A stretch of 64,000 nucleotides of DNA from an uncultured Acidobacteriota bacterium (lineage in GTDB: Bacteria; Acidobacteriota; Terriglobia; Terriglobales; Acidobacteriaceae), in assembly GCA_963735695.1 (NCBI GenBank), contig CAVTLV010000001.1, forward strand, positions 855,458 to 919,457, written 5' to 3'. The translations under genes and the position numbers were made by a program. Under the pieces are notes generated by a model. That model was not told the DNA's origin. It worked only from the letters and a program-made list of their open reading frames with translations, and ran no database searches. This document shows, one piece after another, positions 910 through 33,322 of the stretch. Each line of letters starts with the position of its first letter. The first letter of the stretch is position 1.

Positions 910-3405
910 TCAGGAACCGGTGTAGAGCTGAAAGGGGGCCCAGTAAAACGGTTTATGGAAGGCGGTACTGGATCGAAGCAGCTTGAGCTTGGCATTCCGG
1001 AGAGCGGTGTCGGGAGTTTTTCCTTTTGCGAGTTCTCCGTAGAGTTCGTCCATCAGCTGGGGAGTGGAGACGTCGCTGACCTCCCACAAAGCACCGATCA
1101 CGTTGTGCGCTCCAGCGCGAAGAAATGCCCACGAAAGTCCTACGAGGCCTTCGCCGGTGTAGGCCCGTGAGCCTGCTCCGTAGCACGTCGAAATCGTGAC
1201 TAACTCTGCGTGTAACGGGTGATGAATGATGTCGCGGGCGTAGAGCTTGAAGGAATCGTCCTCGGGCCCAGACTTGGATAGTACGATGGCGGAGTCCAGC
1301 GGGCTGGTGCGACTGGCAGTCCCATGCGCAACAAAGTGAATGTAGGAAAACTGCTCCGGCTTGCCAGACAAATATGCCGTTGGCGTTGCACTATCGCGCG
1401 CGAATATTTTCTGTTGTGGTGGTGAGAAGTTTTTCTCGATACTTTCCATTTCCGCAGAGGCTTTCCGCAGTTCGGGATAATCCGGGTTCGGAGCAATAGC
1501 GTTCCCGAGCAAAAGCAAGCTGGGCGTGCGCTTGTCAGCCGCGCGAGAGGCTGCCAGCAGACGTAGCGAATTTGCATCAGCGATGGTAACGTCTTCAATC
1601 CAGTAGTGCGGAGTCGGGTCGGCAACGATTAAAGTCTCGAAGTTGAGAGTGTTCAGGCTGCCGTCGGGAATGATGATGACTTTCGCATTTTCTGCGAGCG
1701 AAGGTTTCGTCGGCATGACGAGCGTGCGGTAGAGCGTGCGTCCATCGTCATCGGCCGCTGGAAGGAATTCCTGTTGTTCAGAAAGCGCTTTGCGATAGCG
1801 GTGCACCACCGGATCGATTTCCGATTTCGGGGGCAGCGTGAACAAGCTGGTCTTTTTAGCGGTAATCACCCAGAGGTATGACTGCTTCTCGCCGAGCCAG
1901 TAAAAAAGAATCGTGCTGCCGGCGCGTCGTGCGATCTCCTGCGGGTTCAGAGCGACCGGCTTGAACGTGGTCCCTTTTTGCAAGAGACCCAAACCTTCTG
2001 CCAAGGTTCGACCACGACTGTATTCGGCCACTTGCAGAGCCTCTGTGGTCTTGCCTTTGCTCGCCAGGAAATGGATGTAGTCGTCGTAGATGCCGAGCGC
2101 GTTGGAAGGGAATGGCAACTGCAAAGCCTCGCCCTTCAGAGAAGATCGCGCTGTTTCGAAGGTGCTCAGAGCGGCACGATATTCGCGGTCTGCAGGCTGA
2201 GGCTGGTTCTCGTCTTCGTAGAGCTGCGCGAGGGAGTGCTCGGCCTCCCATTTCAAGAAGACGTGGCTCTTGGGATCCTGCTGAATCTCGCGATATATCT
2301 TCTCCGCTTGCTGAGTGTCGTGCATGCGGGCGGCGACGTGACCCTTGACCAGCAGGGGATAGAGCACATCAAGACGGTTGCCGTCTTTAGGAACGAGCGC
2401 GATGGTTTGATCGGCGTAATCGCGGGCTTGATCAAGCCTTCCCCTTCGCTCAGAGACCAAGGCTAGGGACACCAAAGCGTCGATGACATCTTGTTTGGTG
2501 GTTTGTTGTGCTAAGTCGAGAGCCTGCTTATAGTTTTGTTCGGCTTTCTCGAAGTCCTCCGCATCAAGATAGATATAGCCAGCGGTGGTGAGCCAGGTTG
2601 CCTCGTCAGTTGTTGCACCAATCTTCTGAGCGCGGTACCTCGCATCTACGAGCAGGGTTAGGGCTTTTTCGTGTTCTCCTAGTTTGTAATACGCCCAACC
2701 CTCATTGCCCAATGCGGTCTGAGCTATTCGCTCGGCTCCAATCGCCGCGGCCAGTTTGTAGGCGGCGTCGGACCAATCCATCGTCTCGTCATAGTGTTCT
2801 TGCTGCAATGCCGACCACCCAAGGTCCAACAATGCAGTGGCCTCCTTAAAGGAGCTGCTGTGCTCGCGGGCCATGATCAGAGCCTGGCCGAACAGACTCC
2901 GCGCTGCCATGAACCGGCCACGATTCATCTCCATCAAGCCGCGTTCCAGGGGTAAGTCGATGCAATCCGCGGAACTCGAGGTGCTGCAGAGTTGCTCGGC
3001 TTCCGAGAACTTTTTCTCAGCTTCGTCAAAATGTTGCAGGGAGCCATAAGCGGAACCCTCGAGCCGTGCCTTCCTTATCGCAAGGTCACCCGGCGGTGCA
3101 CTCTTCTCGGACGCTATAAGAGGTAGTACTCGATCATTCATTCCCCTCCACGAAAGCGCGTCTGCCTGCAAAAGCAGAAACCTCCAAGCCCACTCTGATC
3201 CACGATTGTGGAACTGTTTGTAGCCCGACTCTGCCTCTTGTTCAGCCTTGGCCACCTGCCCAGTTCGAAAGGAATGCATTGCGTGGTCAAAGGCGGATTG
3301 GGGATCGGGCTGTCGGCCGCAAGAAGGCGAAAAGGTGAGGAGGAAAGCCAACGACACGGATAGACAGAGGCTCGACTTGCCGCGCTGAAAGCGGGTTGCT
3401 TTCAA
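910..3405 (-). CDS. TPR-repeat protein with C-terminal CHAT (caspase-like) protease domain
   Basis: The C-terminal block IHFVAHGTA...LHAELVTISTCYGAGS...GLSWAFLRAGAHNVIGALW is typical of CHAT. It is preceded by about 500 aa of TPR-like helical repeats. The ORF-track start at 3723 would overlap the upstream gene by 289 nt. I place the start at in-frame TTG 3405, just before the hydrophobic segment SSLCLSVSLAFLLTF. The start is uncertain. Confidence 0.8.
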   Translation of the reverse strand: MKATRFQRGKSSLCLSVSLAFLLTFSPSCGRQPDPQSAFDHAMHSFRTGQVAKAEQEAESGYKQFHNRGSEWAWRFLLLQADALSWRGMNDRVLPLIASEKSAPPGDLAIRKARLEGSAYGSLQHFDEAEKKFSEAEQLCSTSSSADCIDLPLERGLMEMNRGRFMAARSLFGQALIMAREHSSSFKEATALLDLGWSALQQEHYDETMDWSDAAYKLAAAIGAERIAQTALGNEGWAYYKLGEHEKALTLLVDARYRAQKIGATTDEATWLTTAGYIYLDAEDFEKAEQNYKQALDLAQQTTKQDVIDALVSLALVSERRGRLDQARDYADQTIALVPKDGNRLDVLYPLLVKGHVAARMHDTQQAEKIYREIQQDPKSHVFLKWEAEHSLAQLYEDENQPQPADREYRAALSTFETARSSLKGEALQLPFPSNALGIYDDYIHFLASKGKTTEALQVAEYSRGRTLAEGLGLLQKGTTFKPVALNPQEIARRAGSTILFYWLGEKQSYLWVITAKKTSLFTLPPKSEIDPVVHRYRKALSEQQEFLPAADDDGRTLYRTLVMPTKPSLAENAKVIIIPDGSLNTLNFETLIVADPTPHYWIEDVTIADANSLRLLAASRAADKRTPSLLLLGNAIAPNPDYPELRKASAEMESIEKNFSPPQQKIFARDSATPTAYLSGKPEQFSYIHFVAHGTASRTSPLDSAIVLSKSGPEDDSFKLYARDIIHHPLHAELVTISTCYGAGSRAYTGEGLVGLSWAFLRAGAHNVIGALWEVSDVSTPQLMDELYGELAKGKTPDTALRNAKLKLLRSSTAFHKPFYWAPFQLYTGS

Positions 3406-3434
3406 ATAGGGAGATGAAATTTGCTGACTAGGGT

Positions 3435-4424
3435 CTATGTTCCGCCGCTGCCGCCTGCGCCTTTTCCGTTCACATTGCACGTCGCTAGCGACGCGCTGCC
3501 GGCCGCAAGGCAGCCCATTTCCAGGCGGATCATGGTGAGCTTGTACGAATTGTGATTCACCGTCAGCTCGGCGAGAAAGATGTTTCCGAAGTCGGGGATG
3601 TGAATCACGTGACCGTAGGATTTCGCTGGGGGTGGGATCTGAATGGACATCCCATCCGCAGCCTTCGCGCTGATGTTCTTGATCTCGACATTTTCGACCA
3701 ATGAACAAGTGATCCCGTCCCATTTACTGTCGCTCTTCCTTGCTGTACTCGCCTGATCCTGAATCTCAGCGTAGTTCAGATTGAAGCCATGATACTTCTT
3801 CGCCAGCAAACCGTCAGCGTCGGTGAGGCGCATTTTCTTCCGATCTTCTCCGGCCAACGATTCGAGAGTTTTTTTCAGCCTCTGGTACTGAGCCCCGACC
3901 GCGCTCATGAGGTCGGTCTTTTGATCGACGGACATCGCATCTTTGCCCGCAGGCCGTTGACCCGTGAGGTCAAGTTTCAGATAAGGCTCTGCTTTGTGGC
4001 GGGCGATCCTCAAATTCTCGAAATGCGTGCCCAGAAAAGTGACATGCGGAGAGTACTCCCCAGGGAAATGCGTGGTGGAGATTTGCGCAACGACCCGATC
4101 CGCCGTCACGACATTCAGAACATTCAAGTCCTCCACTACCGATGTCGCGAGCGTTACCGACGCACCCTCGTGCTTGTCGCTCGTGTGCCCTGAAACCTGC
4201 GTATGGGCAGCGGCGTAAGAAATGATTCCCTCCAGCCGAAAATCCTTCGCGTGCTGAGAGAAATAATTCCGTTGCGCCCGCTCTTCCTCGGGCAGGTCCG
4301 CAAGCTGACCCTCTAACTTCACGAAGGCCTGCTTCTTAATCTGCTCCTCAAACGGCAGTTTCAGCTTGCCGGCAAGGGCGTGAGCTTCCGCATGGAAATA
4401 ATGCGAGGTGCGATTGTCTTTCAT
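3435..4424 (-). CDS. hypothetical protein (329 aa), no recognisable motif and no signal peptide
   Basis: Long ORF with normal amino-acid composition. It sits 20 nt after the anti-sigma gene and about 30 nt before the CHAT gene, so it is in an operon position. The C-terminus is Gly-rich (NGKGAGGSGGT). Confidence 0.65.
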   Translation of the reverse strand: MKDNRTSHYFHAEAHALAGKLKLPFEEQIKKQAFVKLEGQLADLPEEERAQRNYFSQHAKDFRLEGIISYAAAHTQVSGHTSDKHEGASVTLATSVVEDLNVLNVVTADRVVAQISTTHFPGEYSPHVTFLGTHFENLRIARHKAEPYLKLDLTGQRPAGKDAMSVDQKTDLMSAVGAQYQRLKKTLESLAGEDRKKMRLTDADGLLAKKYHGFNLNYAEIQDQASTARKSDSKWDGITCSLVENVEIKNISAKAADGMSIQIPPPAKSYGHVIHIPDFGNIFLAELTVNHNSYKLTMIRLEMGCLAAGSASLATCNVNGKGAGGSGGT

Positions 4425-4444
4425 GAATTCCGCTCGCTCAAGAA

Positions 4445-5122
4445 TTAATTTTGAATTTGCACGTCAATCGGATGACGGCTGAGTTCTTTGCTCTCGCCGG
4501 CAGGGGTGATGCCATTTACGACGAGACTGTAGTTTCCGGATTCAAGATTATGACCCTGGACATAAATCTGCCGGGTCTCTTCGTGGGAGGCGGTTGCAAT
4601 CTGCCTCGACCACTCCTTCTTCCCCGCGGGATTATACAGGTCGGCGGTGTAGGAAGCGAATCCATCTTCCGGAGGAAGATTGACAAGGACTCCGAAGCCT
4701 TCGCCCTTGTGCAGCTTCATGGAAACCGCAGCTGGGCCGCGAGTGCTGACGTTGACGGAAGCCCAGGGGCCGACCTGAGGCTGATTCGCGGTGGCGACCA
4801 ACCTCGGATACGTGACGAAGTTCTGGTAACCGATCACAGCCAGCAGCAAGGCCAACACCGGCACAGCGAAGGCGGGGCGCAGCCAGGCAAGCCATCCAGG
4901 CTTAGCGGTTGCTGCAGCTGGAACACGGGCCACCGAAACAGCGGGAGGCTCCGCCAGAATCACTTTCGTCTGCTCGACGAACATCGCGCCCGCGCGCAGG
5001 TCGAGCGCGCAATCCTGGCAGTCAAAGAGGTGCTCCTCGAACTGATCGCGGAGTTCAGGATCGAGCTCATCCAGCAAGTATCTCTCCGTTGCGTTTTGTC
5101 GGACCGCCTCATCATGGTCCAT
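4445..5122 (-). CDS. anti-sigma factor, zf-HC2 type, single-pass membrane protein
   Basis: HLFDCQDC matches the H-x3-C-x2-C motif near the N-terminus. One TM segment is present (WLAWLRPAFAVPVLALLLAVIGY). The gene lies directly downstream of the ECF sigma gene. ATG 5122 is preferred because GAGGGGA lies 8 nt upstream. Confidence 0.8.
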   Translation of the reverse strand: MDHDEAVRQNATERYLLDELDPELRDQFEEHLFDCQDCALDLRAGAMFVEQTKVILAEPPAVSVARVPAAATAKPGWLAWLRPAFAVPVLALLLAVIGYQNFVTYPRLVATANQPQVGPWASVNVSTRGPAAVSMKLHKGEGFGVLVNLPPEDGFASYTADLYNPAGKKEWSRQIATASHEETRQIYVQGHNLESGNYSLVVNGITPAGESKELSRHPIDVQIQN

Positions 5123-5168
5123 GTCGATTCCCCTCATAACAAATAGTGTTTTGGGGCACAAAATCGTT

Positions 5169-5762
5169 TCAGCGTTTTTCGATGGCCACAGCTCCCGGCG
5201 GTCGAGCCGCTACATTCTTTAAATACAGGGACTTGAACGACAGTTTTGCCCGGTGCAGCAGCACCCGGAGGTAGTCGCGGTCGACGCCAAAGTCACGGCA
5301 AACGTCATCTTTGTCGCGTTCCTCAAGGAAAATCTCCCGCAACAGCCTTCGATCTCGCTCGGGCATTTCCTCCAGGATCTCGCGAATCTTTTCTCCCATT
5401 TGTTTGGCAGCAACGGCACCAAGAACGTCCACATTCGTAGCAGGAAAGTCCTGTTGCTCTTCGTCGTCCAACGAACTGTCGCGCGACGATGCCCGATAAT
5501 GTTCGAGTAAGACGTTGTTGCACATGGAGTTGACGAAAGCGCCGAGCCGTTCGGGCTGGCGAATCTTTCCGCCCCGCAGGGCAGCAAAAACGCGAGTGAA
5601 GGTTTCCTGTCTGACGTCCTCAATCGCCTGCGGTGAATGGAGGCGGGAGCGCAGTTTCAGCTGGATCAATTCGCTGAAGTAAGCCACGAAGTGTTCCTGC
5701 GTGCGGAAGTCTCCTGCCTGAAGACGCTCGACGTAAGATTCGTCAAAGGACTGGAGTTGCAA
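5169..5762 (-). CDS. ECF-type RNA polymerase sigma-70 family factor
   Basis: A region 2-like segment (DVRQETFTRVFAAL) and a region 4 segment (MPERDRRLLREIFLEERDKDDVCRDFGVDRDYLRVLLHRAKLSF) are present, and a zf-HC2 anti-sigma gene follows. Confidence 0.85.
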   Translation of the reverse strand: MQLQSFDESYVERLQAGDFRTQEHFVAYFSELIQLKLRSRLHSPQAIEDVRQETFTRVFAALRGGKIRQPERLGAFVNSMCNNVLLEHYRASSRDSSLDDEEQQDFPATNVDVLGAVAAKQMGEKIREILEEMPERDRRLLREIFLEERDKDDVCRDFGVDRDYLRVLLHRAKLSFKSLYLKNVAARPPGAVAIEKR

Positions 5763-6825: not shown

Positions 6826-9513
6826 CTAGGGATTCGCCCTCATATCGCTGGATGTTCCGCCCGCCGCGGGAACGTAGCATTTGAGGGTGTAATCCATGAC
6901 CATTCGGTCGGCGTTGAAGCGCCAGCCCAGGGTGCGGATGGTGCGCTTCATTCGTTTGATCCAGCCCCTGGGAAGACCGTCGCGGTCGCGCTGGTAGTAA
7001 AGAGGGATCACTTCGTCGCGGAGAGTGCGCATCAGATCCTCACCGTCGCGGCTGTCGTGAACGCTCATGTTGGAGTGCGTCTTGCCAGTGCCGATGGCGA
7101 AGCCGTTTACCCCGTCATAAGCCTCGGCCCACCAGCCATCGAGAACGGACAGATTCAGCCCGCCGTTCAGGACTACTTTCTGTCCGCTCGTACCTGACGC
7201 TTCGAGCGGTCGGCGGGGATTATTAAGCCACACGTCGACGCCCTGTACGAAGTGGCGGCCGACGTCGATGTCATAGTCTTCGACAAAAACGAACCTGTCG
7301 CGGAATTTGGGATCGCGCATGAGATCGGCGATTTGCTGCAATACCCGCTTTCCAGGCTCGTCGAGTGGGTGGGCCTTTCCTGCGAATACGAACTGAACGG
7401 GGCGGTTGGGATCATTGACCATCGCGACAAGGCGCTCGATGTCGGTCAAGATCAAATTCGCCCGCTTGTACGTAGCGAATCGGCGCGCAAATCCGATCGT
7501 CAGAGCATCGGGACTGAGCACGCGTTCAAGGCGCTGCAAGACTTCCCGCGACTCTCCACGGCGCTCAGCCTGTTCCACAGCGCGTTTGCGAACGAATTCA
7601 ATGAGCTGGGACTTCAAGTTGAGGTGAGTCTCCCAGAGTTCGCCATCGTCGACGTTTTCAATGCCGAGCCAGATCTTGGCTTCGCTGCCGCGCTGGTGCC
7701 AGTCGGTGCCGAGGTGACGATCGTAGAGGCGAAACATCTGTGGGGCGAGCCAAGAAGGGACGTGGACTCCGTTCGTGATGTGCCCGATGGGAATCTCGTC
7801 TTCCGCTTTGTCTTTGAAGAGTCCGGTCCACATGGCGCGCGAGACCTCGCCGTGCAACGCCGAGACGGCATTAGCGCGCCGCGAAAGACGAAGGGCCAGG
7901 ACCGTCATGCAGAAAAGTTCGTCGTTGTTTGAGGGATTCTCGCGGCCGAGTCCCATCAAGCTGTCCTGAGAAAGCCCAATGGCTTCGCGCAGGGGGCCGA
8001 TGTGTTCTTCGACCAGGCGGGCATCGAAGCGGTCGTGTCCGGCGGGAACGGGGGTGTGGGTGGTGAAAACGACTTCGCGGGAAATGCGCGGGACGGCGGC
8101 ATCGAAGCCGATCCCTTCGTCTTCCATGCGCATACGAATCGCTTCCAGCACGGCGAAGGCGCTATGGCCTTCATTGAGGTGAAGGACGCCGGGAGAGATT
8201 CCAAGGGCTTTGAGGGCGCGGAGTCCACCCACTCCGAGCAATAACTCCTGGCGGATGCGAATGCGAAGATCGCCGCCATAAAGGCGCGAGGTAAGTTCAC
8301 GGTCTTCCGGAGCGTTGCCTTCGACATCGGAATCGAGCAGGTACAGATCTCGGCGGCCGACTTTTACCCGCCAGACTTTGGCCTGCAGGCTGCCGCTTCG
8401 CGTCTCGATGGAGACAAGCACGGGGCGGCCGTCCTTTCCGATGGCGGCCTCCATGGGTAATTGGCTGACGTCCGTTTCGAGATACTCCTCGCGCTGCCAG
8501 CCGCTGAGATCGAGATGCTGGCGGAAATATCCTTGGGGATAGAACAAACCAATCCCGACCAGCGGAATGTCGAGGTCGGAAGTACTCTTGATGTGATCCC
8601 CGGCCAGCACGCCGAGGCCTCCGGAATAAATAGGCAATGATTCGTGCAATCCAAACTCGGCGGAGAAATACGCCACCGGGTGAGGCCGCAGGACGCCGGC
8701 GTGGCGGGTCCCCCAGGTGCGGTCAGCCTCGAGGTATTCCAGCAGGCGACGATAGGCGTAATTCACACGGCTGTGCAGCATGAGTTCCGTGGCGCGCGTT
8801 TCAAGTTTCGCCAGCGGCATCTCGCTCAGCAGGGCTATTGGATTGTGGTTAAGCTCACTCCAACGGGCAGGATCCAGGTCGAGAAAGAGACTTGCGGAGT
8901 TGTGATCCCAGCTCCACCACAGATTGCGTGCGAGCGTCCACAAACGTTCCTGCAACGGAGCAATGAAGCGATCCAGCGTACGGGCTTCGCTGACGATGGG
9001 CGCGACCTGAGAGGCCGCCTCGGCCAGCATGCGAATCTCATCGGCGCTGAACGTCCTGGCTTCGATGGTCTGGACAACGAGGACGCCCTGGAGAATTCCC
9101 CGATCGATCAGGGGAACACCGAGAAAAGACTGATAAGCATCTTCCCCTGAATCTCGGAAATATTTGAACCGAGGGTGGTTCTTAACCTGGCTGACTGCGA
9201 CCGCTTGCACTTGCTCGGCGACAAGTCCGGTCAATCCCTCATTGACTGCCATGCGCAGATTTCCAATACATTCGCGGCGCAGCCCGACGGTTGCGGCCAA
9301 AACGAGATTGGCGCGATCCGGCTCGAGCAAATAGGCGGAGCAAACGTCGGTTCGAAACCTCTTTGCAATCAACGCGACGACGTTCATGAGGGTCTCTGCC
9401 GACTGGCCACCCTCGACGGCCAGATGCTGAATCTCTTCTTTCGTCAGGACATTCCTGACTTCACCCGTGCGCACTGCTTGATCCATAGTTTCTGTGGTAT
9501 CGTATCCGCTCAA
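6826..9513 (-). CDS. glgP: alpha-glucan (glycogen/maltodextrin) phosphorylase, GT35, with N-terminal PtsP-type GAF domain
   Basis: The PLP-lysine block is LEASGTSGQKVVLNGGLNLSVLDGWW. The core motif GGLGVLAGDHIKS is present. The N-terminal ~170 aa (DVCSAYLLEPDRANLVLAATVGL...GLTGLVAEQ...FLGVPLIDRGILQGVLVVQT) read as a GAF domain. Confidence 0.85.
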   Translation of the reverse strand: MSGYDTTETMDQAVRTGEVRNVLTKEEIQHLAVEGGQSAETLMNVVALIAKRFRTDVCSAYLLEPDRANLVLAATVGLRRECIGNLRMAVNEGLTGLVAEQVQAVAVSQVKNHPRFKYFRDSGEDAYQSFLGVPLIDRGILQGVLVVQTIEARTFSADEIRMLAEAASQVAPIVSEARTLDRFIAPLQERLWTLARNLWWSWDHNSASLFLDLDPARWSELNHNPIALLSEMPLAKLETRATELMLHSRVNYAYRRLLEYLEADRTWGTRHAGVLRPHPVAYFSAEFGLHESLPIYSGGLGVLAGDHIKSTSDLDIPLVGIGLFYPQGYFRQHLDLSGWQREEYLETDVSQLPMEAAIGKDGRPVLVSIETRSGSLQAKVWRVKVGRRDLYLLDSDVEGNAPEDRELTSRLYGGDLRIRIRQELLLGVGGLRALKALGISPGVLHLNEGHSAFAVLEAIRMRMEDEGIGFDAAVPRISREVVFTTHTPVPAGHDRFDARLVEEHIGPLREAIGLSQDSLMGLGRENPSNNDELFCMTVLALRLSRRANAVSALHGEVSRAMWTGLFKDKAEDEIPIGHITNGVHVPSWLAPQMFRLYDRHLGTDWHQRGSEAKIWLGIENVDDGELWETHLNLKSQLIEFVRKRAVEQAERRGESREVLQRLERVLSPDALTIGFARRFATYKRANLILTDIERLVAMVNDPNRPVQFVFAGKAHPLDEPGKRVLQQIADLMRDPKFRDRFVFVEDYDIDVGRHFVQGVDVWLNNPRRPLEASGTSGQKVVLNGGLNLSVLDGWWAEAYDGVNGFAIGTGKTHSNMSVHDSRDGEDLMRTLRDEVIPLYYQRDRDGLPRGWIKRMKRTIRTLGWRFNADRMVMDYTLKCYVPAAGGTSSDMRANP

Positions 9514-9896: not shown

Positions 9897-12026
9897 ATGG
9901 AGTCAAGAATAATGAACGGGATTGCCGCGCGATCGCTCGGGTATGGTGCAGGAGTACTTACACTTGTGGTTTTGGGATGTATCCTCGCGGGACAAGCTGC
10001 AGGACCTGCGAAGCATCGAGTCTCGCTGCCGACGGACTGGAGTCACCGGCACGTCATCTTCTCGAACCCGACTACGGCCGAGGAGTACGCGCGGACCATC
10101 GACGAACCGCGCTACTGGCAGCAGATGTATCGGCGTAACTCCCCTGCGTCACTGGTCGCGATGGCGCCGCTCGCCAAGACTGCGCCTTCCAAATTTAAGG
10201 GAGCCCTGCATCGGGACTGGTCCGTGAGCCTTGGCAGTGGAGCCACCATGGGGCCGGGGAACTATCCCGCCAAATTTGGGTTTGATGTGACCACTGCCAG
10301 CTGTAGTGCGGATTACGTGGTGTACAGCACGGGGCTGGCGAGTTCGGGCACGCAGGCCAGTATTGTCGGATTTACGAATATCTACTCGGGATGCGCGGGA
10401 TCGCCGACCGTGAATTGGGCCTACGATACGGGGGGGCAAGTCCTTACGTCGCCGGTCACCTCACTGGACGGCGCTCAGGTGGCGTTTGTTCAGACTGATG
10501 GCGCAGCAAGGGGAACACTTGTCCTAATAAAGTGGGCCGGTTCCTCCGGATCGATTGGATCGCCGATCACTCTTACAAATCTGACGCCTGCGCAGTACCA
10601 GGCTTGCACGACACCCCCGTGCATGACCAAGCTCATCCTAAGGGATAATCTAGGTGTTGCTACCGATGATACAACTTCATCCGCTTTTTACGATTACAAG
10701 AACGACATCATCTGGGTCGGTGGCGCCAGGGGATGGGTGCACAAAATCACGGGAGTGTTCAAGGGAACTCCAATTGAAGTCATAACAGGTGGATTTCCTG
10801 TCCAGGTGTCGGCTGCACCCTGGACCTCAAGCGCGGTGTACGACCGGGTCTCGAACGATGTCTTCGTCGGTGACGCGCTGGGATTCGTTTATGCAGTGAA
10901 TGCCACGACTGGAGCGGTGACTGTTTCCGGGCAGTTGGATTTTGGAGCGGGCGTCGTGGACGCACCGATCATCGATCAGACCGGAGGCTTCCTCTATGTG
11001 TTCGCGTCGAGCGATAACAGTGGTTTATGCACAGCTGGCGTGAACTGTGCCGCTGTCTACCAACTCAGCACAACGTTTGCTAGCGGTGACACCGGAACCG
11101 AGGTCACCGTGGGAGACAGTGTTTTGAGTGCACCCCCAAATCCGAACCCTATGTACATTGGCGGATTCGACAGCGCCTACTTCAGCTCTGCGAATCGAAC
11201 AGGCAATCTTTATGTCTGCGGCAATACCGGGGCGATACCAACGCTGTACCAAGTTTCGGTCACAGCAGGCGCATTCCCGGGTACCGGTCTCGGAACTCCT
11301 TTTACTACGCTAGGCAAGACCGGATCCAATGCGGGGTGCTCTCCGGTTACAGATGTGGCCAACCCGAATACAACGGGCGGGCCTTCCGAGCGGGTGTTTG
11401 TCAGCGTGCAAGGCAGTGGTCTTTCCACGGCATGTTCTTCCGGGGGATGCATCATGAGCTTTCTTGACACGCCATGGAAGGCGAATACGGCGTATTCAAT
11501 CGGACAACAAGTTCTGAGTTCGCGGCGTCGCGTCGAGACAGTCATGACTGCAGGAACGTCGGGGGGTACAACCCCCGTGTGGACAAACTCCGCGGGTGCT
11601 AAGAAAACGGATGGCTCCGTGGTTTGGATAGATCAAGGGGCGCTTAACGCCACCACGATTCCTAGTTGGGTGGCTGGCCATACTTATATCGCTCCAACAA
11701 CCCGTATTATTGATTCGCTTGGCAACGTGCAGGTCTCCACTACCCCGGGCACTTCGGGACCGTCGGCTCCGGCTTGGAACACGACTCCCGGGGGCACAAC
11801 TCCTGATGGCACCGGCACGCTGGTTTGGACTAACGCCGGTCCCGTTGGCACTTTTGCATTGCCCTCAGCTGGCGGTACCAGTGGAATTATCGAGGATAAC
11901 GTTGTCTCTCCGTTAACCCAGGCGGGGGCTTCTCAGGTATACTTCACCACTCTGGGCAATCAGACTTGCGGAACTAGTGGGTCGGGGGGCTGCGCTGTGC
12001 AAGCCTCTCAGCCAGCTTTACAATAA
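9897..12026 (+). CDS. secreted PQQ-like beta-propeller repeat protein with two C-terminal Trp-rich repeats
   Basis: The N-terminal hydrophobic segment is GAGVLTLVVLGCILAGQAAG. Propeller-like blades are visible (VFVGDALGFVYAVNATTGAV, GFLYVFASS). The repeats are W..NTAY..GQQV...GTSGGTTPVWTN...DGSVVWIDQG and W..GHTY.....GTSGPSAPAWNT...DGTGTLVWTNAG. The start could be 9828, 9897 or 9912. Confidence 0.6.
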   Translation: MESRIMNGIAARSLGYGAGVLTLVVLGCILAGQAAGPAKHRVSLPTDWSHRHVIFSNPTTAEEYARTIDEPRYWQQMYRRNSPASLVAMAPLAKTAPSKFKGALHRDWSVSLGSGATMGPGNYPAKFGFDVTTASCSADYVVYSTGLASSGTQASIVGFTNIYSGCAGSPTVNWAYDTGGQVLTSPVTSLDGAQVAFVQTDGAARGTLVLIKWAGSSGSIGSPITLTNLTPAQYQACTTPPCMTKLILRDNLGVATDDTTSSAFYDYKNDIIWVGGARGWVHKITGVFKGTPIEVITGGFPVQVSAAPWTSSAVYDRVSNDVFVGDALGFVYAVNATTGAVTVSGQLDFGAGVVDAPIIDQTGGFLYVFASSDNSGLCTAGVNCAAVYQLSTTFASGDTGTEVTVGDSVLSAPPNPNPMYIGGFDSAYFSSANRTGNLYVCGNTGAIPTLYQVSVTAGAFPGTGLGTPFTTLGKTGSNAGCSPVTDVANPNTTGGPSERVFVSVQGSGLSTACSSGGCIMSFLDTPWKANTAYSIGQQVLSSRRRVETVMTAGTSGGTTPVWTNSAGAKKTDGSVVWIDQGALNATTIPSWVAGHTYIAPTTRIIDSLGNVQVSTTPGTSGPSAPAWNTTPGGTTPDGTGTLVWTNAGPVGTFALPSAGGTSGIIEDNVVSPLTQAGASQVYFTTLGNQTCGTSGSGGCAVQASQPALQ

Positions 12027-12039
12027 GACCGAGACTTCT

Positions 12040-12204
12040 ATGAATACAGACGATTCGACCTCTGAGCAGCCCCGCGTTTCCGTTGCGAAAAAGCCGTACG
12101 AGAAACCGGCCTTCCGCTACGAGCAGGTTTTTGTGACAACGGCTCTGGCGTGCGGCAAAATCTCGACGAGCTCCGCCTGCCTGCACGTGGGAAGCGCTTC
12201 ATGA
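12040..12204 (+). CDS. candidate RiPP precursor peptide (54 aa)
   Basis: The peptide is MNTDDSTSEQPRVSVAKKPYEKPAFRYEQVFVTTALACGKISTSSACLHVGSAS. It is below the ORF-track length cutoff when read from its internal ATG. It starts 14 nt after the previous stop. Its TGA overlaps the ATG of the next gene (ATGA at 12201-12204). The Shine-Dalgarno signal is weak. Confidence 0.55.
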   Translation: MNTDDSTSEQPRVSVAKKPYEKPAFRYEQVFVTTALACGKISTSSACLHVGSAS

Positions 12205-12668
12205 CTGTTTCCGAGCACGGGCAGGACCTTGCCCACGCTCTCAAGTGTGATCTGGCCAGCGAGACCTTGCGCGCCTCCGGTCGTTTGCGGCTGCGCGTAA
12301 CCGGTTGGAGCATGCTTCCGACCATCTGGCCTGGGGATACGCTTGAGTTAGAGGGGACCCGGCGCGACGAGCTTTCTGCGGGCGATATTGTGCTGTTCAG
12401 TCGGGATCGCCGCCTGTTTGCCCACCGCCTATTGAAAGCCAGCGGAAACGGGATCGTCACGCACGGGGATGCGATGCTCCGACCCGACCCGGTCGTCACA
12501 GAAAGCGAAGTGCTTGGCCGTGTCGCATGCATCGTGCGCAACGGCAAATGCATTCTGCCGAGCAAGACCTTGTCGCTTTCAGAACGTACCGTCGCGGGGG
12601 TTGCACGGTCCTCGGAATTCGGCGCCCGCTTCATTGTGGGGATACACGGTCTGCTTCACGGTAAGTAA
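12201..12668 (+). CDS. S24/S26-family peptidase, ER/archaeal (SipW/Sec11-like, Ser-His) type
   Basis: GWSMLPTIWPGDTLEL contains the Ser nucleophile box. GDIVLFSRDRRLFAHRLL carries HR where bacterial P-type SPases and LexA have KR, which is the S26B pattern as I recall it. The gene is translationally coupled to the small ORF. Confidence 0.65.
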   Translation: MTVSEHGQDLAHALKCDLASETLRASGRLRLRVTGWSMLPTIWPGDTLELEGTRRDELSAGDIVLFSRDRRLFAHRLLKASGNGIVTHGDAMLRPDPVVTESEVLGRVACIVRNGKCILPSKTLSLSERTVAGVARSSEFGARFIVGIHGLLHGK

Positions 12669-12696
12669 GACCACCTTAGAATCGATCGAGATTTTC

Positions 12697-13512
12697 TTGC
12701 CTCAGTTGACCACAGACGTCGAGCGCCTCAGCCTCGTAATTGAGATCGGGGGCATGGGTGTGCGCGTGAATACGGCAGACTCGAATTTCCTGGAAATGCT
12801 GCAGTGTCGATATACGGGCTTCGTGAGTGATTCGGACGGGGCTGAAGTTGAATTCGATGTCGAGCTCATCAACCCGGGCGATGGCGATGATGATGCACCG
12901 GTCGAAGTGAAGCATCAGCGCGGCGCGTGGTCATTCCGGCGGGGCGATTTTCTTGCGGAGTGGCAACCGGCCTCGCAACGCGGATGGATTCGGCAGTCGG
13001 CGAACCCGTACTCGATTGATGCGGTGCTGCGCATTGTTCACACGCTGGTGCTGGCCAGGCAGGGAGGGTTCCTGCTGCATTCGGCCAGCGCGATCCGCAA
13101 CGGGAAAGCGTTCCTGTTTGCCGGAGTATCGGAGGCGGGTAAGACGACCATATCGCGACTGGCGCCGTCGGACGTCACGCTTCTTACGGACGAGATTTCG
13201 TATGTGCGAAAGTGCGATGACGGGTACATTGCATTTGGTACTCCTTTCACAGGAGAATTGGCCAAGCTCGGCGAGAATGTTTCGGCTCCGATCGCTGCCC
13301 TCTACTTACTGGCCAAGGGAAGCGAAAATCGAATTGATCCGGTACCGCCCGGCGAGGCGGCGCGCGCCCTGCTTGCGAATCTATTGTTTTTCGCGGAGGA
13401 TGAGGAGCTGGTGCAAGCCACTTTTCATGCCGCGTTTGAGTTTGTGAGCCGTGTACCAGTTTGGCGGTTGACCTTCTTCCCCGATGCACGGGTTTGGGAG
13501 TTGATTCGATGA
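12697..13512 (+). CDS. HPr kinase-like (HprK-related) serine kinase
   Basis: LHSASAIRNGKAFLFAGVSEAGKTTIS contains a Walker A motif (GxxxxGKT) in the context typical of HprK C-terminal-like kinases. The start is ambiguous: TTG 12697, TTG 12706 or ATG 12754. The ORF-track start at 12469 would overlap the peptidase gene. Confidence 0.65.
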   Translation: MPQLTTDVERLSLVIEIGGMGVRVNTADSNFLEMLQCRYTGFVSDSDGAEVEFDVELINPGDGDDDAPVEVKHQRGAWSFRRGDFLAEWQPASQRGWIRQSANPYSIDAVLRIVHTLVLARQGGFLLHSASAIRNGKAFLFAGVSEAGKTTISRLAPSDVTLLTDEISYVRKCDDGYIAFGTPFTGELAKLGENVSAPIAALYLLAKGSENRIDPVPPGEAARALLANLLFFAEDEELVQATFHAAFEFVSRVPVWRLTFFPDARVWELIR

Positions 13513-13811
13513 GTAGCCTTTATGTGGCCCGCAATCCGCGAGTGGCGGCGCGCAGCCTCGACGGCGAGATGATGATCATGTCGGGGCGGGACTCGACATT
13601 ATTTACCCTGAATAAGACCGCAACCATCCTATGGCAAGCGGCCGACGGGGCAACTCCGCTCGAAGAGATCGTGCAGCAAAAGATCTGCACAGAATTTGAG
13701 ATTGAGCCCGGTGAGGCACTGCGAGACGCTGAGACCTTGGCGCGGGACCTTGCCAGCCACGGAATCCTGCATATATCCGAAGAACCAATCGTCCGCGGAG
13801 AGTCGAAATGA
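13509..13811 (+). CDS. PqqD-family peptide chaperone (RRE-type)
   Basis: SLDGEMMIMSGRDSTLFTLNKTATILWQAADGATPLEEIVQQKICTEFEIEPGEALRDAETLARDLASHGIL fits the PqqD pattern. There are ATGA overlaps at both ends (13509-13512 and 13808-13811). Confidence 0.8.
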   Translation: MSSLYVARNPRVAARSLDGEMMIMSGRDSTLFTLNKTATILWQAADGATPLEEIVQQKICTEFEIEPGEALRDAETLARDLASHGILHISEEPIVRGESK

Positions 13812-14935
13812 ACGGGTTGCTCGAGCATATGACCGAGAAGGCGCTGGCGCGGAACATCCCACTCAGCGTGCAACTCGATTTGACCTATCGCTGCAACGAA
13901 CGGTGCGTTCATTGTTATCTCGACCACGAAGATCATGGCGAGATGACGACGGCGGAGATCAAACATTTGCTGGACGAGATGGCGGACGCCGGAGTCTTTA
14001 TCTTGACGCTGAGCGGCGGCGAGATTTTTCTGCGCAAAGACTTCTTCGAGATTCTCGAGTACGCGCGGCTCGAGCGGCAATTCTGCGTGAAGCTCAAGAC
14101 CAATGCGATCATGATCCATGAGCGCCAGGCTGCGAAGATCCGGGACATTGGGGTGGAGTCGATCCAGATCAGCATCTACTCCCACAGGCCGGAGGTGCAT
14201 GATGCGGTCACGCTGGTGCCAGGATCATTGCAGAGATCATTGGACGCAGCGCGGTTTCTGAAGTCGCAAGGACTGCGGGTGATCTTTGCGAACGTGCTGA
14301 TGGTGCAGAATCTGCAAGATTACCAGGGCGTAAGGGCGCTGGCAGAGGAAGTCGGGGTCGAGTGTACCTTGGACCCGACCATCACCCCCATGATGGATGG
14401 CGACCGCTCGGTGTTGAGCATGGGGCTGAAACAGGAAGCGTTGCGCCAGGTATTTCGCGATAAGGAGCTGGTCGGGGATGTGGACGAGTTTTGTACGGTC
14501 GCCGCTCCTGCCGATGAAAACGAGCTGTCAGCTCTGCCATGCAGCGCAGGACATACGACCTGTTACGTGTCGCCTTATGGCGATGTGTTTCCGTGCGTGC
14601 AGTTTCCGATTCCGACTGGAAATGTGAGGAACGAGCGGTTCGTCGACATTTGGCGGTACTCGGAGCGAATGAACGAAGTGCGCTCGATCCGCCTGAAGGA
14701 CCTGACGACCTGCACGTCTTGCTCACACGTCGGGAGTTGCACGCGGTGTCCAGGGCTGGCATTTATGGAGGGCAATATGCGCGGGCCGTCATCGCAGGAT
14801 TGCGAGAAGTCTTTTGCGCGCACAGGAATTCCATCAGCTAATATGCTGGCGAAGAAGCAGGCGTCACGCGATCTGGTGCAGATCCGCATAATGCCGGGCA
14901 ACTCGGCAAGTCAACCCACCGGCGCAATTGCATGA
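13808..14935 (+). CDS. radical SAM enzyme with C-terminal SPASM domain
   Basis: LTYRCNERCVHCY is the CxxxCxxC motif. The SPASM-type Cys clusters are CSAGHTTCYVSPYGDVFPCVQFP and CTSCSHVGSCTRCPGLA. Confidence 0.85.
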   Translation: MNGLLEHMTEKALARNIPLSVQLDLTYRCNERCVHCYLDHEDHGEMTTAEIKHLLDEMADAGVFILTLSGGEIFLRKDFFEILEYARLERQFCVKLKTNAIMIHERQAAKIRDIGVESIQISIYSHRPEVHDAVTLVPGSLQRSLDAARFLKSQGLRVIFANVLMVQNLQDYQGVRALAEEVGVECTLDPTITPMMDGDRSVLSMGLKQEALRQVFRDKELVGDVDEFCTVAAPADENELSALPCSAGHTTCYVSPYGDVFPCVQFPIPTGNVRNERFVDIWRYSERMNEVRSIRLKDLTTCTSCSHVGSCTRCPGLAFMEGNMRGPSSQDCEKSFARTGIPSANMLAKKQASRDLVQIRIMPGNSASQPTGAIA

Positions 14936-14968
14936 GCAGTTCTCAGGAGCAGTATTCCGATCGGAAAT

Positions 14969-16135
14969 ATGCCAGGAAGTTCTGCGCCGCTTGAGACCGA
15001 GTGGTCTTTGTTGCGGGCTGCGTGTGCCGATGTTCCTCCTGCACAGAAAACCGCTCGAATTCGTAAGTTATTAGATTCTCAGATTCGCTGGGATTCTCTC
15101 CTTAGTCTCGCGGAAAATCACGGGGTGCAACCGATTCTTGCACGATCCCTCATGAGTTTCGAGGATCAGATTCCTGCCCAAGCGCTCATCGCTCTAAAAC
15201 AAAGTTATCAGGCAAATCTTCACAAAGCTCTCTTGCTATCAGGTGAATTTGTTCGTGTGGTTGACAAGTTGTCGGAGGCTGGAATCGAATTCATTCCCTA
15301 TAAGGGTCTGGCTTTGGCGGAGACCATCTACGGGGACATTGCGTTGCGCCAAGCCGGCGATATCGATCTCCTGATTCATGCGGCAGATCTGAAGCGCATC
15401 CAGGAAGTGATGGGGAAGATCGGTTACGTGCTGCAATTGAATTTTTCGGAAGACGAAGAAGCGGCATACATAAAGTCTGGGTACGAGTGCGCATTCGACG
15501 GTGCAGCAGGAAGGAATTTGCTGGAGGTCCAATGGGCGATTGAGCCACATTTTTATGCGGTAGATGTTGATCTTGAAGGACTATTCCGCAGGGCGCAGAC
15601 GGCAAGGGTTATGGGCTTAGACACAAAGTCGTTGTCACCGGAGGACCTCTTTGTAGTACTGGGTTTGCATGCGGCGAAGCATGTATGGGGACGGCTGATC
15701 TGGTTATGCGACCTGGAGCGGATCAGCAGGCTGCCGCTAAACTGGAAAAGGATCGTTGAGCACGCGCAGCAACTGGGTGTAGTGCGAATTCTTTGCGTTA
15801 CGCTACTGCTTGCAGAAAGACTGCTCGGCTCTCCTTGCCCGGCATTGGCCGCGGAAAATCTTCCCAAGGATTCAGCAGCTGAACCATTGGCGCAGGAGAT
15901 CGAAACATACATTTCAAACGATAAGACATACGATGTTGAGTCGCTCGCGTACTTCCGCCTGATGCTGAGATTGCGAGAACGGCGCATCGACCGTATCCGA
16001 TTTGTTAGCCGATTTGTATTTACGCCAGGGCCCGGCGAGTGGGCGGTGATGCGACTCCCGAAACTTCTATTTCCGCTATACCGGGTGTTGAGACTTACTC
16101 GCCTAGTCGGCAGAATAGTCAGTGGCCGGGTCTGA
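14969..16135 (+). CDS. nucleotidyltransferase family protein (PF14907 / NTP_transf_5-like)
   Basis: The N-terminus (WDSLLSLAENHGVQPILARSL) and the GDIDLLIHAADLKRIQEVMGKIGY block are typical of the uncharacterised nucleotidyltransferase family found in lasso-peptide clusters. Confidence 0.6.
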   Translation: MPGSSAPLETEWSLLRAACADVPPAQKTARIRKLLDSQIRWDSLLSLAENHGVQPILARSLMSFEDQIPAQALIALKQSYQANLHKALLLSGEFVRVVDKLSEAGIEFIPYKGLALAETIYGDIALRQAGDIDLLIHAADLKRIQEVMGKIGYVLQLNFSEDEEAAYIKSGYECAFDGAAGRNLLEVQWAIEPHFYAVDVDLEGLFRRAQTARVMGLDTKSLSPEDLFVVLGLHAAKHVWGRLIWLCDLERISRLPLNWKRIVEHAQQLGVVRILCVTLLLAERLLGSPCPALAAENLPKDSAAEPLAQEIETYISNDKTYDVESLAYFRLMLRLRERRIDRIRFVSRFVFTPGPGEWAVMRLPKLLFPLYRVLRLTRLVGRIVSGRV

Positions 16136-17332
16136 GCGAGTCCAACTTCGCAGATAGAGGACGTACATAAGCGCGCATCCCAACAGCGGGACATAGAAGC
16201 CAGCCTTCAAGGTCCCAAACCTTGTGGACGAAACACCTACAAGCCATGGTAAAAGACCGCCCCCGATGTTCGACAGAACGAACATGAGCGATCCGATCCG
16301 GGGGGAATCAAACTCACGAGACAGGAGCGAAATTGTAATGGGGTAGACGTATGAGAGACCCAAACCCCCGGCGCATGCGCTGGCAGCCACTCCCGGCAAT
16401 TCATGCGAAGAGATCAGTCCTGCCATTCCCGCACACGCCAAAAGTAAGCCAATCTGGACCAGTCGGATTTCGTCAATGACCAGGAGCAGAGCAGGTGCCA
16501 GCATTCTGCCGACCGTCAGCGAGGCATAGAAAAAGGAGGGAATCGCCAAAGATGTAGCCAGTGTCAAGGTTCCCAGACTCTTCCCATAGGACGCCAGCCA
16601 CTGGCCAAATCCGTTTTCCACCCCGACGTAGAGAAAAAAAAGCAGTGCGAGAATGGAAAATAGATGGGTACGCGCACGAATCAGGGACAGGACCGGGCGT
16701 TTGTCCAATATCACAGCCGGTTCGACGATGCCGCCGCCGGTTAACGCTATCCCGATCACAACCGAAACACAGAAGCCGGAGACGCAAAGCAAAAATAGCG
16801 GAATGTGTTGAGTCTTGGAGGCCGCGGCTACCAGGAAGGGACCGGCTACCGCTCCCGTGCTCCAGAAGAAGTTCAGCAGATTTAGCGTCGCGCTTCTGCG
16901 TCCCGGATTCACTGCGGCGACCATCAGGTTCGCTGCGGGAACTGCCAAGCCGAGTCCGGCACCATTCGCTGCAATGCAAACAATGGCAGACCATTTTGGA
17001 CCGGCTAGCAAAAAGGCCAGCCCCATAGCGGTGAGAAGAAGTCCGGTCTTCATTGCAAAGCGGTATCCTCGCCAGGAAGCCAAGACTCCTGAAAATGCAA
17101 CGGCGCAAGTCGAAGCAACGTACTGGACCGGAAAAAACGCGCCCGCCTGTGAGTAATTCAATGACCAGCGCGCCGAAAGCGTCGGCAGCATCGGACCGAG
17201 AATAACGGTTGCGACTCCGATGGGAATAAATGAGATGTACGCGGCATAGGTGAGAACGCGGGCAGAATCGGGCGCTGTGTGCGTGGCGGCGGTAGACATG
17301 AGGGGAGCGACTGCGTCCCCGGGCAGACGCAA
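16103..17332 (-). CDS. MFS transporter
   Basis: About 12 hydrophobic segments with MFS-like loops. The 3' end overlaps the convergent NTase gene by 33 nt. An alternative start is ATG 17299. Confidence 0.7.
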   Translation of the reverse strand: MRLPGDAVAPLMSTAATHTAPDSARVLTYAAYISFIPIGVATVILGPMLPTLSARWSLNYSQAGAFFPVQYVASTCAVAFSGVLASWRGYRFAMKTGLLLTAMGLAFLLAGPKWSAIVCIAANGAGLGLAVPAANLMVAAVNPGRRSATLNLLNFFWSTGAVAGPFLVAAASKTQHIPLFLLCVSGFCVSVVIGIALTGGGIVEPAVILDKRPVLSLIRARTHLFSILALLFFLYVGVENGFGQWLASYGKSLGTLTLATSLAIPSFFYASLTVGRMLAPALLLVIDEIRLVQIGLLLACAGMAGLISSHELPGVAASACAGGLGLSYVYPITISLLSREFDSPRIGSLMFVLSNIGGGLLPWLVGVSSTRFGTLKAGFYVPLLGCALMYVLYLRSWTRSDPATDYSAD

Positions 17333-33318: not shown

Positions 33319-33322
33319 CGGA

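Follow-up and report, generated by a model that had tools for sequence, protein, structure and literature searches.

A candidate peptide-maturation operon of Terriglobia that joins a lasso-like leader module to a radical SAM/SPASM enzyme

The subject of this report is a compact operon in a 64,000-nucleotide stretch of DNA (hereafter the window) from an uncultured bacterium of the family Acidobacteriaceae (Acidobacteriota; contig CAVTLV010000001.1). It encodes a small peptide, a peptidase of the S24/S26 type, a P-loop kinase-like protein of the ScmC family, a discrete PqqD-type protein, a radical S-adenosylmethionine (SAM)/SPASM enzyme and a PF14907 nucleotidyltransferase. We consider it probable that these genes form a biosynthetic operon for a ribosomally synthesised and post-translationally modified peptide (RiPP) of an uncharacterised family, which would act through the steps proposed below. 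An earlier note, made from the letters of the window alone, had suggested a RiPP-like cluster, and this suggestion is now supported by the conservation of the precursor and by its motifs. In the best reading, the candidate family joins a lasso-like leader, a RiPP recognition element (RRE) and a kinase module with a radical SAM enzyme and an S26-type leader peptidase.

Evidence for this reading comes first from the small open reading frame (ORF) at the head of the six genes, which public annotations call as a gene of 54 amino acids (aa). Relatives of the operon were collected in a scan of one genome per species, in which at least 535 species genomes had a relative of the radical SAM enzyme and the best 80 loci were kept (loci are designated below by L numbers). 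Conservation of the small ORF beside homologous PqqD/radical SAM pairs, on which the earlier note had made its proposal depend, was observed in 68 of the 80 loci, at the same position, and precursors were also found in three diverged lineages (L086, L081/L090 and L083). In the alignment of the 68 homologues, all of which differ in sequence, the leader is near-invariant (KKPYEKPxFRxExVFVTxAL, x being any residue), and the invariant positions of the whole peptide are Y20, K22, P23, R26, E28, F31, V32, T33, A35, C38, K40 and C47. Every precursor has exactly two Cys, which lie 8-10 residues apart, a further 6-9 residues follow the second Cys, and the peptide ends in [AV]-S, with a C-terminal Ser in all 68; the precursors of L086, L081/L090 (six peptides) and L083 also end in Ser. 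Between these fixed positions the core is hypervariable, and no acidic residue (Asp/Glu) is conserved in it across the 68 precursors. For the window precursor, the leader is predicted to comprise residues 1-35, ending …KKPYEKPAFRYEQVFVTTA, and the predicted core is LACGKISTSSACLHVGSAS. The invariant residues use all synonymous codons (four each for Pro, Val, Thr, Ala and Arg), which indicates that conservation acts on the protein and not on the DNA. A conserved leader followed by a variable core is the classical RiPP pattern, and what the small ORF encodes is a true precursor peptide. Its leader contains the invariant motif Y20-x-x-P23-x-F25, and T33/T34 precede A35. When 32 precursors were compared with NCBIfam at E-values up to 10, no lasso-leader model matched and only two stray single-member matches (actinodefensin and galT) appeared, so the likeness to lasso leaders is one of motif alone.

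Nearly all of the best 80 loci belong to metagenome-assembled genomes of Terriglobia, and the few labels from other groups look like binning errors. In a basal clade of Terriglobia (L068-L080), the precursor, peptidase, kinase, PqqD and radical SAM genes occur together in other genomic contexts, with no nucleotidyltransferase, major facilitator superfamily (MFS) or LacI gene; one of these loci, L070, is a complete chromosome (OY970281.1) that carries the five-gene core at another chromosomal position. L086 has a homologue of the beta-propeller gene that precedes the operon in the window, together with the precursor (…RKPYRKPSFRSEQVFETMALACGKTPGSHEAHCHGFGVKHS), peptidase, ScmC, PqqD and radical SAM genes, and the identity of its kinase to that of the window is 57%. 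In L081 and L090, all four enzymes are 32-37% identical to their window counterparts and are encoded in the order ScmC, PqqD, radical SAM/SPASM and S26-like peptidase, followed by three tandem precursors of 86-88 aa (for example, MKKYSKPTIFTEKSFETSALACGK…YAGLCGNWVTLAS), which have the leader and the ALACGK motif in common with the others, carry their second Cys 8 residues from the C-terminus and end in Ser. A metagenome scan with the kinase of the L081 type found only 3 loci. The presence of the five-gene core in L068-L080, L086 and L081/L090 shows that the core is old and moves as a unit. The core thus consists of precursor, peptidase, kinase, PqqD and radical SAM enzyme, and the nucleotidyltransferase is accessory. 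L083 encodes a weak ScmC-like protein, a PqqD, an S26B-like peptidase (SGSMYP … MHRLI … GDNA) and a 32-aa peptide (MKQITAPVKKSYKKPAKTSEKIELTAFATVAS), and has no radical SAM gene; this peptide has a YKKP leader, ends in Ser and lacks Cys (…KKSYKKPAKTSEKIELTAFATVAS). Across these lineages, PqqD is accompanied by the YxKP leader, the kinase by the terminal Ser and the radical SAM enzyme by Cys, in that every lineage bearing this enzyme has two-Cys cores and only the lineage without it has a core without Cys.

Some further features of these lineages were also observed. The cores of the long precursors (L081 10476-11590 and L090 8392-9580) are Gly/Ser-rich and contain the conserved internal motifs YDTFTGH and GFGPGGTS. 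Immediately downstream of the precursors, the opposite strand of L081 carries two large B12-binding/radical SAM genes. The L083 system (2285-2761 and 7001-8243) is situated inside a cluster of glycosyltransferase, methyltransferase and ATP-binding cassette transporter genes.

The ORF listing and a reading of the sequence agree with the six co-directional genes of the earlier note and with its three ATGA start/stop overlaps, at 12201-12204, 13509-13512 and 13808-13811. The positions of these genes and of their neighbours are collected in Table 1. The usual order among the 80 loci is glgP on the minus strand, beta-propeller, precursor, peptidase, kinase, PqqD, radical SAM, nucleotidyltransferase, and then the MFS and LacI genes on the minus strand, and since this order is the same in most of the loci, the arrangement is not due to chance. 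The extent of the unit had been set too short: the beta-propeller gene, which was not part of the earlier proposal, as a rule occurs where the precursor occurs and disappears together with it, and the unit probably starts one gene earlier, with this gene. Promoter and terminator scans of the locus were at background level and gave no operon boundaries, Rfam had no match anywhere in the window, and exact-sequence look-ups of the window radical SAM enzyme and peptidase returned no identical public record.

Table 1. Genes of the candidate operon and its immediate neighbours (positions in the window)
Feature	Positions	Strand	Basis
Precursor peptide gene, 54 aa	12040-12204	+	ORF listing, homologues
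S24/S26 peptidase, presumed leader peptidase	12201-12668	+	PF00717
ScmC-family P-loop kinase-like gene	12697-13512	+	start inferred as TTG 12697
Discrete PqqD-type RRE	13509-13811	+	PF05402
Radical SAM/SPASM peptide maturase candidate	13808-14935	+	PF04055, PF13186
PF14907 nucleotidyltransferase, accessory	14969-16135	+	PF14907
Beta-propeller gene, membrane-anchored or secreted, associated	9912-12026	+	predicted structure, synteny
MFS transporter gene, convergent	16103-17332	-	PF07690

The domain calls of the earlier note for PqqD, Radical_SAM, SPASM and PF14907 were all matched by Pfam. The PqqD protein matches PF05402 with 47.1 bits, its best NCBIfam models are lasso_PqqD_Strm (28.5 against a cut-off of 70) and lasso_PqqD_Bac (21.3 against 80), and its gene overlaps those of both neighbours. 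The radical SAM enzyme matches PF04055 with 80.5 bits and PF13186 with 40.5 bits, and contains a CX3CX2C motif at Cys29/33/36 and a C-terminal Cys cluster (245, 252, 263, 302, 305, 311 and 314); the motif Cys and the SPASM Cys set do not vary among 80 homologues. Among solved structures, SkfB and PqqE are the nearest relatives of the enzyme. The best NCBIfam matches are MftC (138.9), AhbD (136), NirJ2 (133), WgkB (105), GeoRSP (104) and ScmE (96.5), and judged by these family-model scores, which are not a phylogeny, the enzyme reaches no NCBIfam cut-off, including those of non-peptide pathways (265 for MftC and 500 for AhbD). The features expected of a radical SAM/SPASM peptide maturase are nevertheless found in the same operon, namely a discrete RRE gene that overlaps the start of the radical SAM gene and a conserved precursor. 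By analogy, the enzyme may take the role that the cyclase has in lasso clusters.

The peptidase matches Peptidase_S24 (PF00717) with 27.8 bits and the archaeal signal peptidase model sigpep_I_arch (TIGR02228) with 35.9 bits, the latter under the equivalog cut-off of 51.85. Ser37 in a GWSMxP box, His75 in an AHR box and Asp90 in a GD box are invariant in 74 homologues, and the only match among the sequences of the Protein Data Bank (PDB) is human SEC11C, with a weak alignment over the Ser and His boxes. These data bear out the earlier assignment to the ER-type S26 peptidases, which is best given as S26B-like, of the ER/archaeal, SipW-like type with Ser, His and Asp as catalytic residues. Like the signal peptidases I of this type (Sec11, SipW), the protein has the GxSMxP Ser box, the AHR His box and the GD box, and the presumed site in the window precursor has Thr at -3 and Ala at -1; signal peptidases follow a rule of small residues at positions -3 and -1 of the cleavage site. 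In contrast to them, it has no membrane anchor, scores below the TIGR02228 cut-off and is encoded within a peptide-modification operon, overlapping the stop codon of the precursor. A hydrophobicity scan detected no segment over the threshold, that is, no transmembrane segment or membrane anchor, which suggests a soluble and presumably cytoplasmic protein. It is plausible that this peptidase has the role of the lasso B2 protease. Protein P0123, considered as a possible fusion of peptidase and kinase, was rejected because its N-terminus has no similarity to the peptidase.

With regard to the kinase-like protein, the earlier note had placed its start at ATG 12469 of the long ORF; homology to the start of the L070 protein makes the TTG codon listed in Table 1 the most likely one. 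The description as an HprK-like kinase holds in part. A P-loop is present, and the predicted structure has the PEPCK/HprK P-loop fold (PEPCK, phosphoenolpyruvate carboxykinase), but the local copy of Pfam gave no match, including none to PF07475 at an E-value of 0.01 or better, and the fold is as close to PEPCK. The AlphaFold (AF2) model (mean predicted local distance difference test score, pLDDT, 92.3; predicted template modelling score 0.88) retrieved ATP-dependent PEP carboxykinases with E ~2e-9 and HprK/P (1knx, 1kkl) with E ~1e-4 in Foldseek, and sequence comparison with the PDB gave generic P-loops only. All NCBIfam scores are below threshold (ScmC 33.7 against 125, HprK_rel_A 19.5 against 200 and HprK_rel_B 15 against 200), with ScmC as the best match; distant members of the family score 19-56 bits with the NCBIfam ScmC model (TIGR04249). 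The Pfam family PF27840 'ScmC' is assigned in precomputed annotations to the orthologous kinase in L084/L085 and to homologues at 20-57% identity, and the assignment is made through these orthologues because the model is not in the local Pfam copy. A set of 25 diverse homologues, with identities as low as 20%, retains the Walker A motif GVSEAGKT as well as His128 and Asp165. Lone ScmC-family genes were also observed directly after dprA (L082 2569-3393 and L088 2328-3134), with PqqD, radical SAM and small-peptide genes absent nearby, which indicates that not all members of the family sit in peptide-maturation operons.

The nucleotidyltransferase matches NTP_transf_5 (PF14907) with 193 bits and has a conserved G-D-x-D motif, and a sequence search of the PDB gave no match. 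Its place in the cluster, claimed earlier without distinction from the other genes, is confirmed for the window but is that of an accessory and not a core gene, since it is absent from L068-L080, L081 and L090. The G+C content is 0.50-0.53 over this gene (window 15000-15999) against ~0.57-0.60 in the rest of the cluster, which fits a later-acquired accessory gene. A second PF14907 protein is encoded at 32137-33372 on the minus strand (32.5 bits, just above the cut-off) among genes for GH99/GH71-like, Polysacc_synt and glycosyltransferase proteins (33323-34306, 43064-45076 and 49281-52379), which places the family in a polysaccharide setting as well within this genome.

Several known systems may be compared with this operon, among them the phosphorylated and phosphoglycosylated lasso clusters (paeninodin, pseudomycoidin and BsfA). 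Common to these and the window are an RRE of the PqqD type that stands as a separate protein, a leader in which Y-x-x-P-x-[LF] occurs and a Thr lies close to the cleavage site (a predicted one in the window), a P-loop kinase with the HprK/PEPCK fold, a precursor ending in Ser and, in some cases, a PF14907 nucleotidyltransferase. In the lasso clusters, HPr-kinase homologues act on the linear precursor and place a phosphate on its C-terminal Ser, the precursors of different phyla share little except this Ser, and in pseudomycoidin the nucleotidyltransferase of the N gene adds hexoses to the phosphate (PMC8498205). Lasso B1 RREs recognise YxxPxL at -17 to -12, with Thr at -2, and speed up phosphorylation (PMC10368454). 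The C-terminal Ser and the lasso-like leader make the link to the lasso module stronger than the earlier note had supposed.

Based on these likenesses, a pathway may be proposed. After translation of the 54-aa precursor, the discrete PqqD would bind the leader motif Y-x-K-P-x-F, which is of the same type as that read by lasso B1 proteins, and would then hand the peptide to the other enzymes. The radical SAM/SPASM enzyme would modify the core of ~20 residues at or through Cys38 and Cys47, most probably by forming one or two cross-links, of the thioether or another kind, in which both invariant Cys are used. The spacing of the two Cys ranges from 8-10 to about 55 residues across lineages, which fits either a macrocycle that depends on Cys-Cys or two local cross-links, and the type of this reaction is the weakest step of the proposal. 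The ScmC-type kinase would phosphorylate the side chain of the invariant C-terminal Ser54, and the PF14907 nucleotidyltransferase, where present, would decorate the phosphate, as in pseudomycoidin. Finally, the soluble S26-type peptidase would cut the leader after T33-x-A35 (Thr at -3, Ala at -1). With a cut after A35, the small-residue rule is obeyed and Thr34 stands at -2, like the Thr of lasso leaders; Tyr20 then falls at -16 instead of -17, so that a cut one residue later is possible. We infer each chemical step, the order of the steps and the cleavage site by analogy.

Despite this shared module, the operon is not a lasso cluster. The window has a radical SAM/SPASM enzyme and an S26-type peptidase instead of cyclase and B2 protease, its kinase is of the ScmC family and not PF07475, its PqqD scores under the lasso B1 cut-offs, and its core has no conserved acidic residue, whereas lasso cores have an N-terminal Gly, Ala, Ser or Cys and an Asp or Glu at position 7-9. 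As the earlier note had stated, a lasso cyclase and a B2 protease are lacking: no Asn_synthase or transglutaminase-like domain was detected in window ORFs of at least 150 aa, the B2 search covering shorter ORFs at 9-20 kb only, so that a B2-like protein of less than 150 aa could be encoded elsewhere in the window. Asn_synthase is also absent from the precomputed Pfam annotation of L081, L083, L084, L085 and L086, and no look-alike of either protein was seen among the cluster neighbours in the loci inspected. One might regard the operon as a decayed lasso cluster that has lost cyclase and B2 protease and stands next to an unrelated radical SAM gene, with no specific product. The YxKPxF leader, with a Thr that precedes the putative cut by two residues, the lasso B1 models as best matches of PqqD, the pairing of kinase and PF14907 as in lasso tailoring and the occurrence of phosphorylated lasso clusters in Acidobacteriaceae (PMC10368454) would all agree with such an origin. 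However, the genes are intact and translationally coupled, their catalytic residues are invariant in 74-80 homologues, and the precursor is under selection at the protein level. Moreover, the radical SAM gene is always present and ATGA-coupled to that of PqqD, the same gene set occurs at 32-37% identity in a distant lineage, and the core has no conserved Asp/Glu for a macrolactam. The conservation data thus disfavour decay, which we regard as very improbable.

The earlier note had named the SynChlorMet cassette, a system defined bioinformatically (TIGR04248-04251), as the closest one. This comparison stands for the neighbourhood, in that adjacent ScmC-like, PqqD-like and radical SAM/SPASM genes occur in both and PF27840 is assigned to the kinase orthologues, but every SCM cut-off is missed and the window has a single radical SAM gene. 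It is conceivable that the operon is a plain member of this cassette (ScmC/ScmD/ScmE/ScmF) and nothing new, as might be concluded from the Pfam assignment, from ScmC heading the kinase matches and from the presence of ScmD and ScmE among the matches of PqqD and the radical SAM enzyme. The scores, however, are far under the cut-offs (for the kinase as given above, 16.7 against 100 for ScmD, TIGR04248, and 96.5 against 400 for ScmE), the MftC, AhbD, NirJ and GeoRSP models outscore ScmE on the radical SAM enzyme, and ScmF (cut-off 400) is not among the best 25 of its 63 NCBIfam matches. The window also has one radical SAM gene and not two, and adds an S26 peptidase, a PF14907 protein and a defined precursor family; we know of no SCM model for either of these two proteins. 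The cassette is itself uncharacterised, and plain membership in it appears unlikely.

Among characterised pathways, sactipeptide and ranthipeptide maturation (SkfB, AlbA and PapB) likewise employs a radical SAM enzyme with a full SPASM Cys set, depends on an RRE and acts on a Cys-containing precursor, and SkfB is the closest solved relative. The window differs in that its RRE is a separate protein, its two Cys are spaced by 8-10 or ~55 residues, its kinase and S26 peptidase are foreign to those systems and the scores are far under the cut-offs. The mycofactocin system (MftA/B/C/E/F) likewise combines a radical SAM/SPASM enzyme and a PqqD-like chaperone with an invariant C-terminal precursor residue, a peptidase and sugar-adding tailoring, and MftC is the top NCBIfam match of the radical SAM enzyme. 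The MftC score is far from its cut-off, though, the precursor ends in Ser and not in Val-Tyr, the core is hypervariable, and the families of peptidase and tailoring enzymes are different. According to the family scores, the operon is not mycofactocin, GeoRSP, ACGX, SCIFF/ranthipeptide or sactipeptide. The view of the earlier note that no characterised RiPP class has this gene set therefore agrees with the results, as no NCBIfam cut-off is reached and no paper describing it was found. The full-text literature searched contained no paper on this gene set, with subscription journals thinly covered, so that an earlier description is possible, and none on 'SynChlorMet' or 'ScmC'. The operon is best filed as an RRE-dependent radical SAM RiPP pathway in which the leader, RRE, kinase and nucleotidyltransferase of the lasso module are used again, together with a soluble ER-type S26 peptidase. 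Uncharacterised radical SAM RiPP families are numerous.

A number of observations weigh against such a pathway. The kinase matches neither PF07475 nor any lasso-kinase model above the cut-off, and in fold it resembles PEPCK no less than HprK. The top family scores of the radical SAM enzyme are those of MftC and of heme and heme d1 enzymes, far below cut-off, and the correlation between radical SAM enzyme and Cys is drawn from one lineage that lacks the enzyme. The operon has no dedicated exporter or immunity gene and shows a strong vertical and syntenic conservation that is unusual for antibiotic-type RiPPs, and the product and each enzymatic step are predicted from sequence and analogy. In addition, about 10 of the 80 loci keep the S26 peptidase, kinase, PqqD, radical SAM enzyme and nucleotidyltransferase intact and have no small ORF, which means that the precursors are encoded elsewhere or that the enzymes have another substrate. 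The latter would be in line with a reading in which the main substrate of the enzymes is another protein or a small molecule, the small ORF encoding a peptide that has a regulatory role or is unrelated to them. The lone ScmC-like genes beside dprA (L082 and L088), and the fact that the radical SAM enzyme resembles heme-pathway enzymes about as much as peptide maturases, also speak for it. Nevertheless, the presence of a PqqD-type RRE implies that the substrate is a peptide, the small ORF is built as leader and core and is ATGA-coupled to the peptidase gene, and its Cys co-vary with the radical SAM enzyme and its C-terminal Ser with the kinase across distant lineages. A main substrate other than the small peptide is hence quite unlikely in our estimate.

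The conservation of synteny deserves separate attention. As its chromosomal position is constant in most of the 80 closest loci, the operon appears to be a lineage-wide trait and not a sporadic antibiotic cluster, and its role may be a less conventional one, given this conservation, the tie to the secreted beta-propeller gene and the missing exporter. The beta-propeller gene is an associated gene. Its long ORF begins at 9828, homologues begin at the Met of codon 29, and it ends 13 nucleotides (nt) before the precursor, with no convincing terminator between them. The protein has an N-terminal hydrophobic anchor or signal segment (KD19 2.0), a C-terminus conserved as C-x7-9-C-AVQASQxALQ and ~1,550 homologues. 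In a fold search, its AF2 model (pLDDT 77) gave only matches to generic propellers such as BamB, YxaL and WD40 proteins and no functional lead, and the protein had no PDB sequence match and no informative Pfam match. Some homologues (P0357, P0367, P0369, P0375, P0413 and others) are ~905 aa long with an extra PF11999 domain, and others have a weak match to the beta-propeller (PQQ-like) family PF13570.

Most Terriglobia loci have the propeller gene together with the cluster, as does L086, whose homologue overlaps the start of the precursor. From the region between glgP and the peptidase or kinase gene, the propeller gene and the precursor are missing together, with the enzymes intact, in L006, L022, L030, L033, L044, L047, L076, L002, L028 and L038, losses that fall in at least five separate places on the radical SAM tree, and L013 retains frameshifted, decayed remnants of both. 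In L002 and L084/L085, the peptidase gene and the 5' part of the kinase gene have been lost as well. Such a pattern raises the possibility that the peptide, instead of being a free product, becomes cross-linked and phosphorylated in order to serve the secreted beta-propeller as partner, subunit or prosthetic piece. This would be similar in logic to the gamma subunit of quinohemoprotein amine dehydrogenase, which is cross-linked by a radical SAM enzyme, or to peptide-derived cofactors such as pyrroloquinoline quinone (PQQ) and mycofactocin. In the same direction point the position of the propeller gene directly upstream on the same strand, its retention with the cluster, the independent joint losses, a vertical and syntenic inheritance that resembles that of a housekeeping trait, the mycofactocin maturase as best family match of the radical SAM enzyme, and the lack of exporter and immunity genes. 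On the other hand, a hypervariable core is unexpected for a cofactor or a fixed subunit, the propeller is absent from L070, L068, L072, L077, L080 and the L081/L090 lineage, which do have precursor and enzymes, the propeller model is a generic fold with no cofactor site identified, and one deletion of two adjacent genes would also give a joint loss. Considering both sides, we regard a function as propeller partner as fairly unlikely, and the RiPP pathway proposed above is preferred.

Terriglobia rank with the most abundant bacteria of soils, and only a very small number of peptide products from them are characterised so far. If the proposed pathway is correct, the leader-recognition and tailoring module of lasso peptides can recombine with a different class-defining enzyme, a soluble homologue of ER/archaeal-type signal peptidases would act as a RiPP leader peptidase, and the operon would provide a first experimental handle on the ScmC/SynChlorMet-type family, which so far consists of database models only. 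The precursor alignment predicts cleavage after T-x-A, the two Cys as targets of the radical SAM enzyme and a phosphate on the last Ser. If the peptide instead proved to be a partner of the propeller, it would be a second example of the logic of quinohemoprotein amine dehydrogenase, conserved across Terriglobia, in which a small peptide cross-linked by a radical SAM enzyme becomes part of an extracytoplasmic enzyme.

Downstream of the operon, the 3' end of the convergent MFS gene overlaps the nucleotidyltransferase gene by 33 nt (window 16103-16135). Its product matches PF07690 with 56.9 bits and has a weak TsgA match, and the gene is syntenic in most loci and absent where the cluster sits elsewhere, for example in L070. 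The protein may serve as an exporter, but it is more likely that the gene belongs with the adjacent LacI regulator. On the other side, the cluster adjoins a glycogen/starch phosphorylase-family gene (6826-9513, minus strand) with an N-terminal GAF domain and DUF3417, which is 80-98% identical across loci and forms the left anchor of synteny. Further upstream (910-5762, minus strand), genes were observed for a TPR-CHAT protein (910-3723), for a zf-HC2 protein that is a putative anti-sigma factor (4445-5161) and for a sigma factor of the extracytoplasmic function type (5169-5762).

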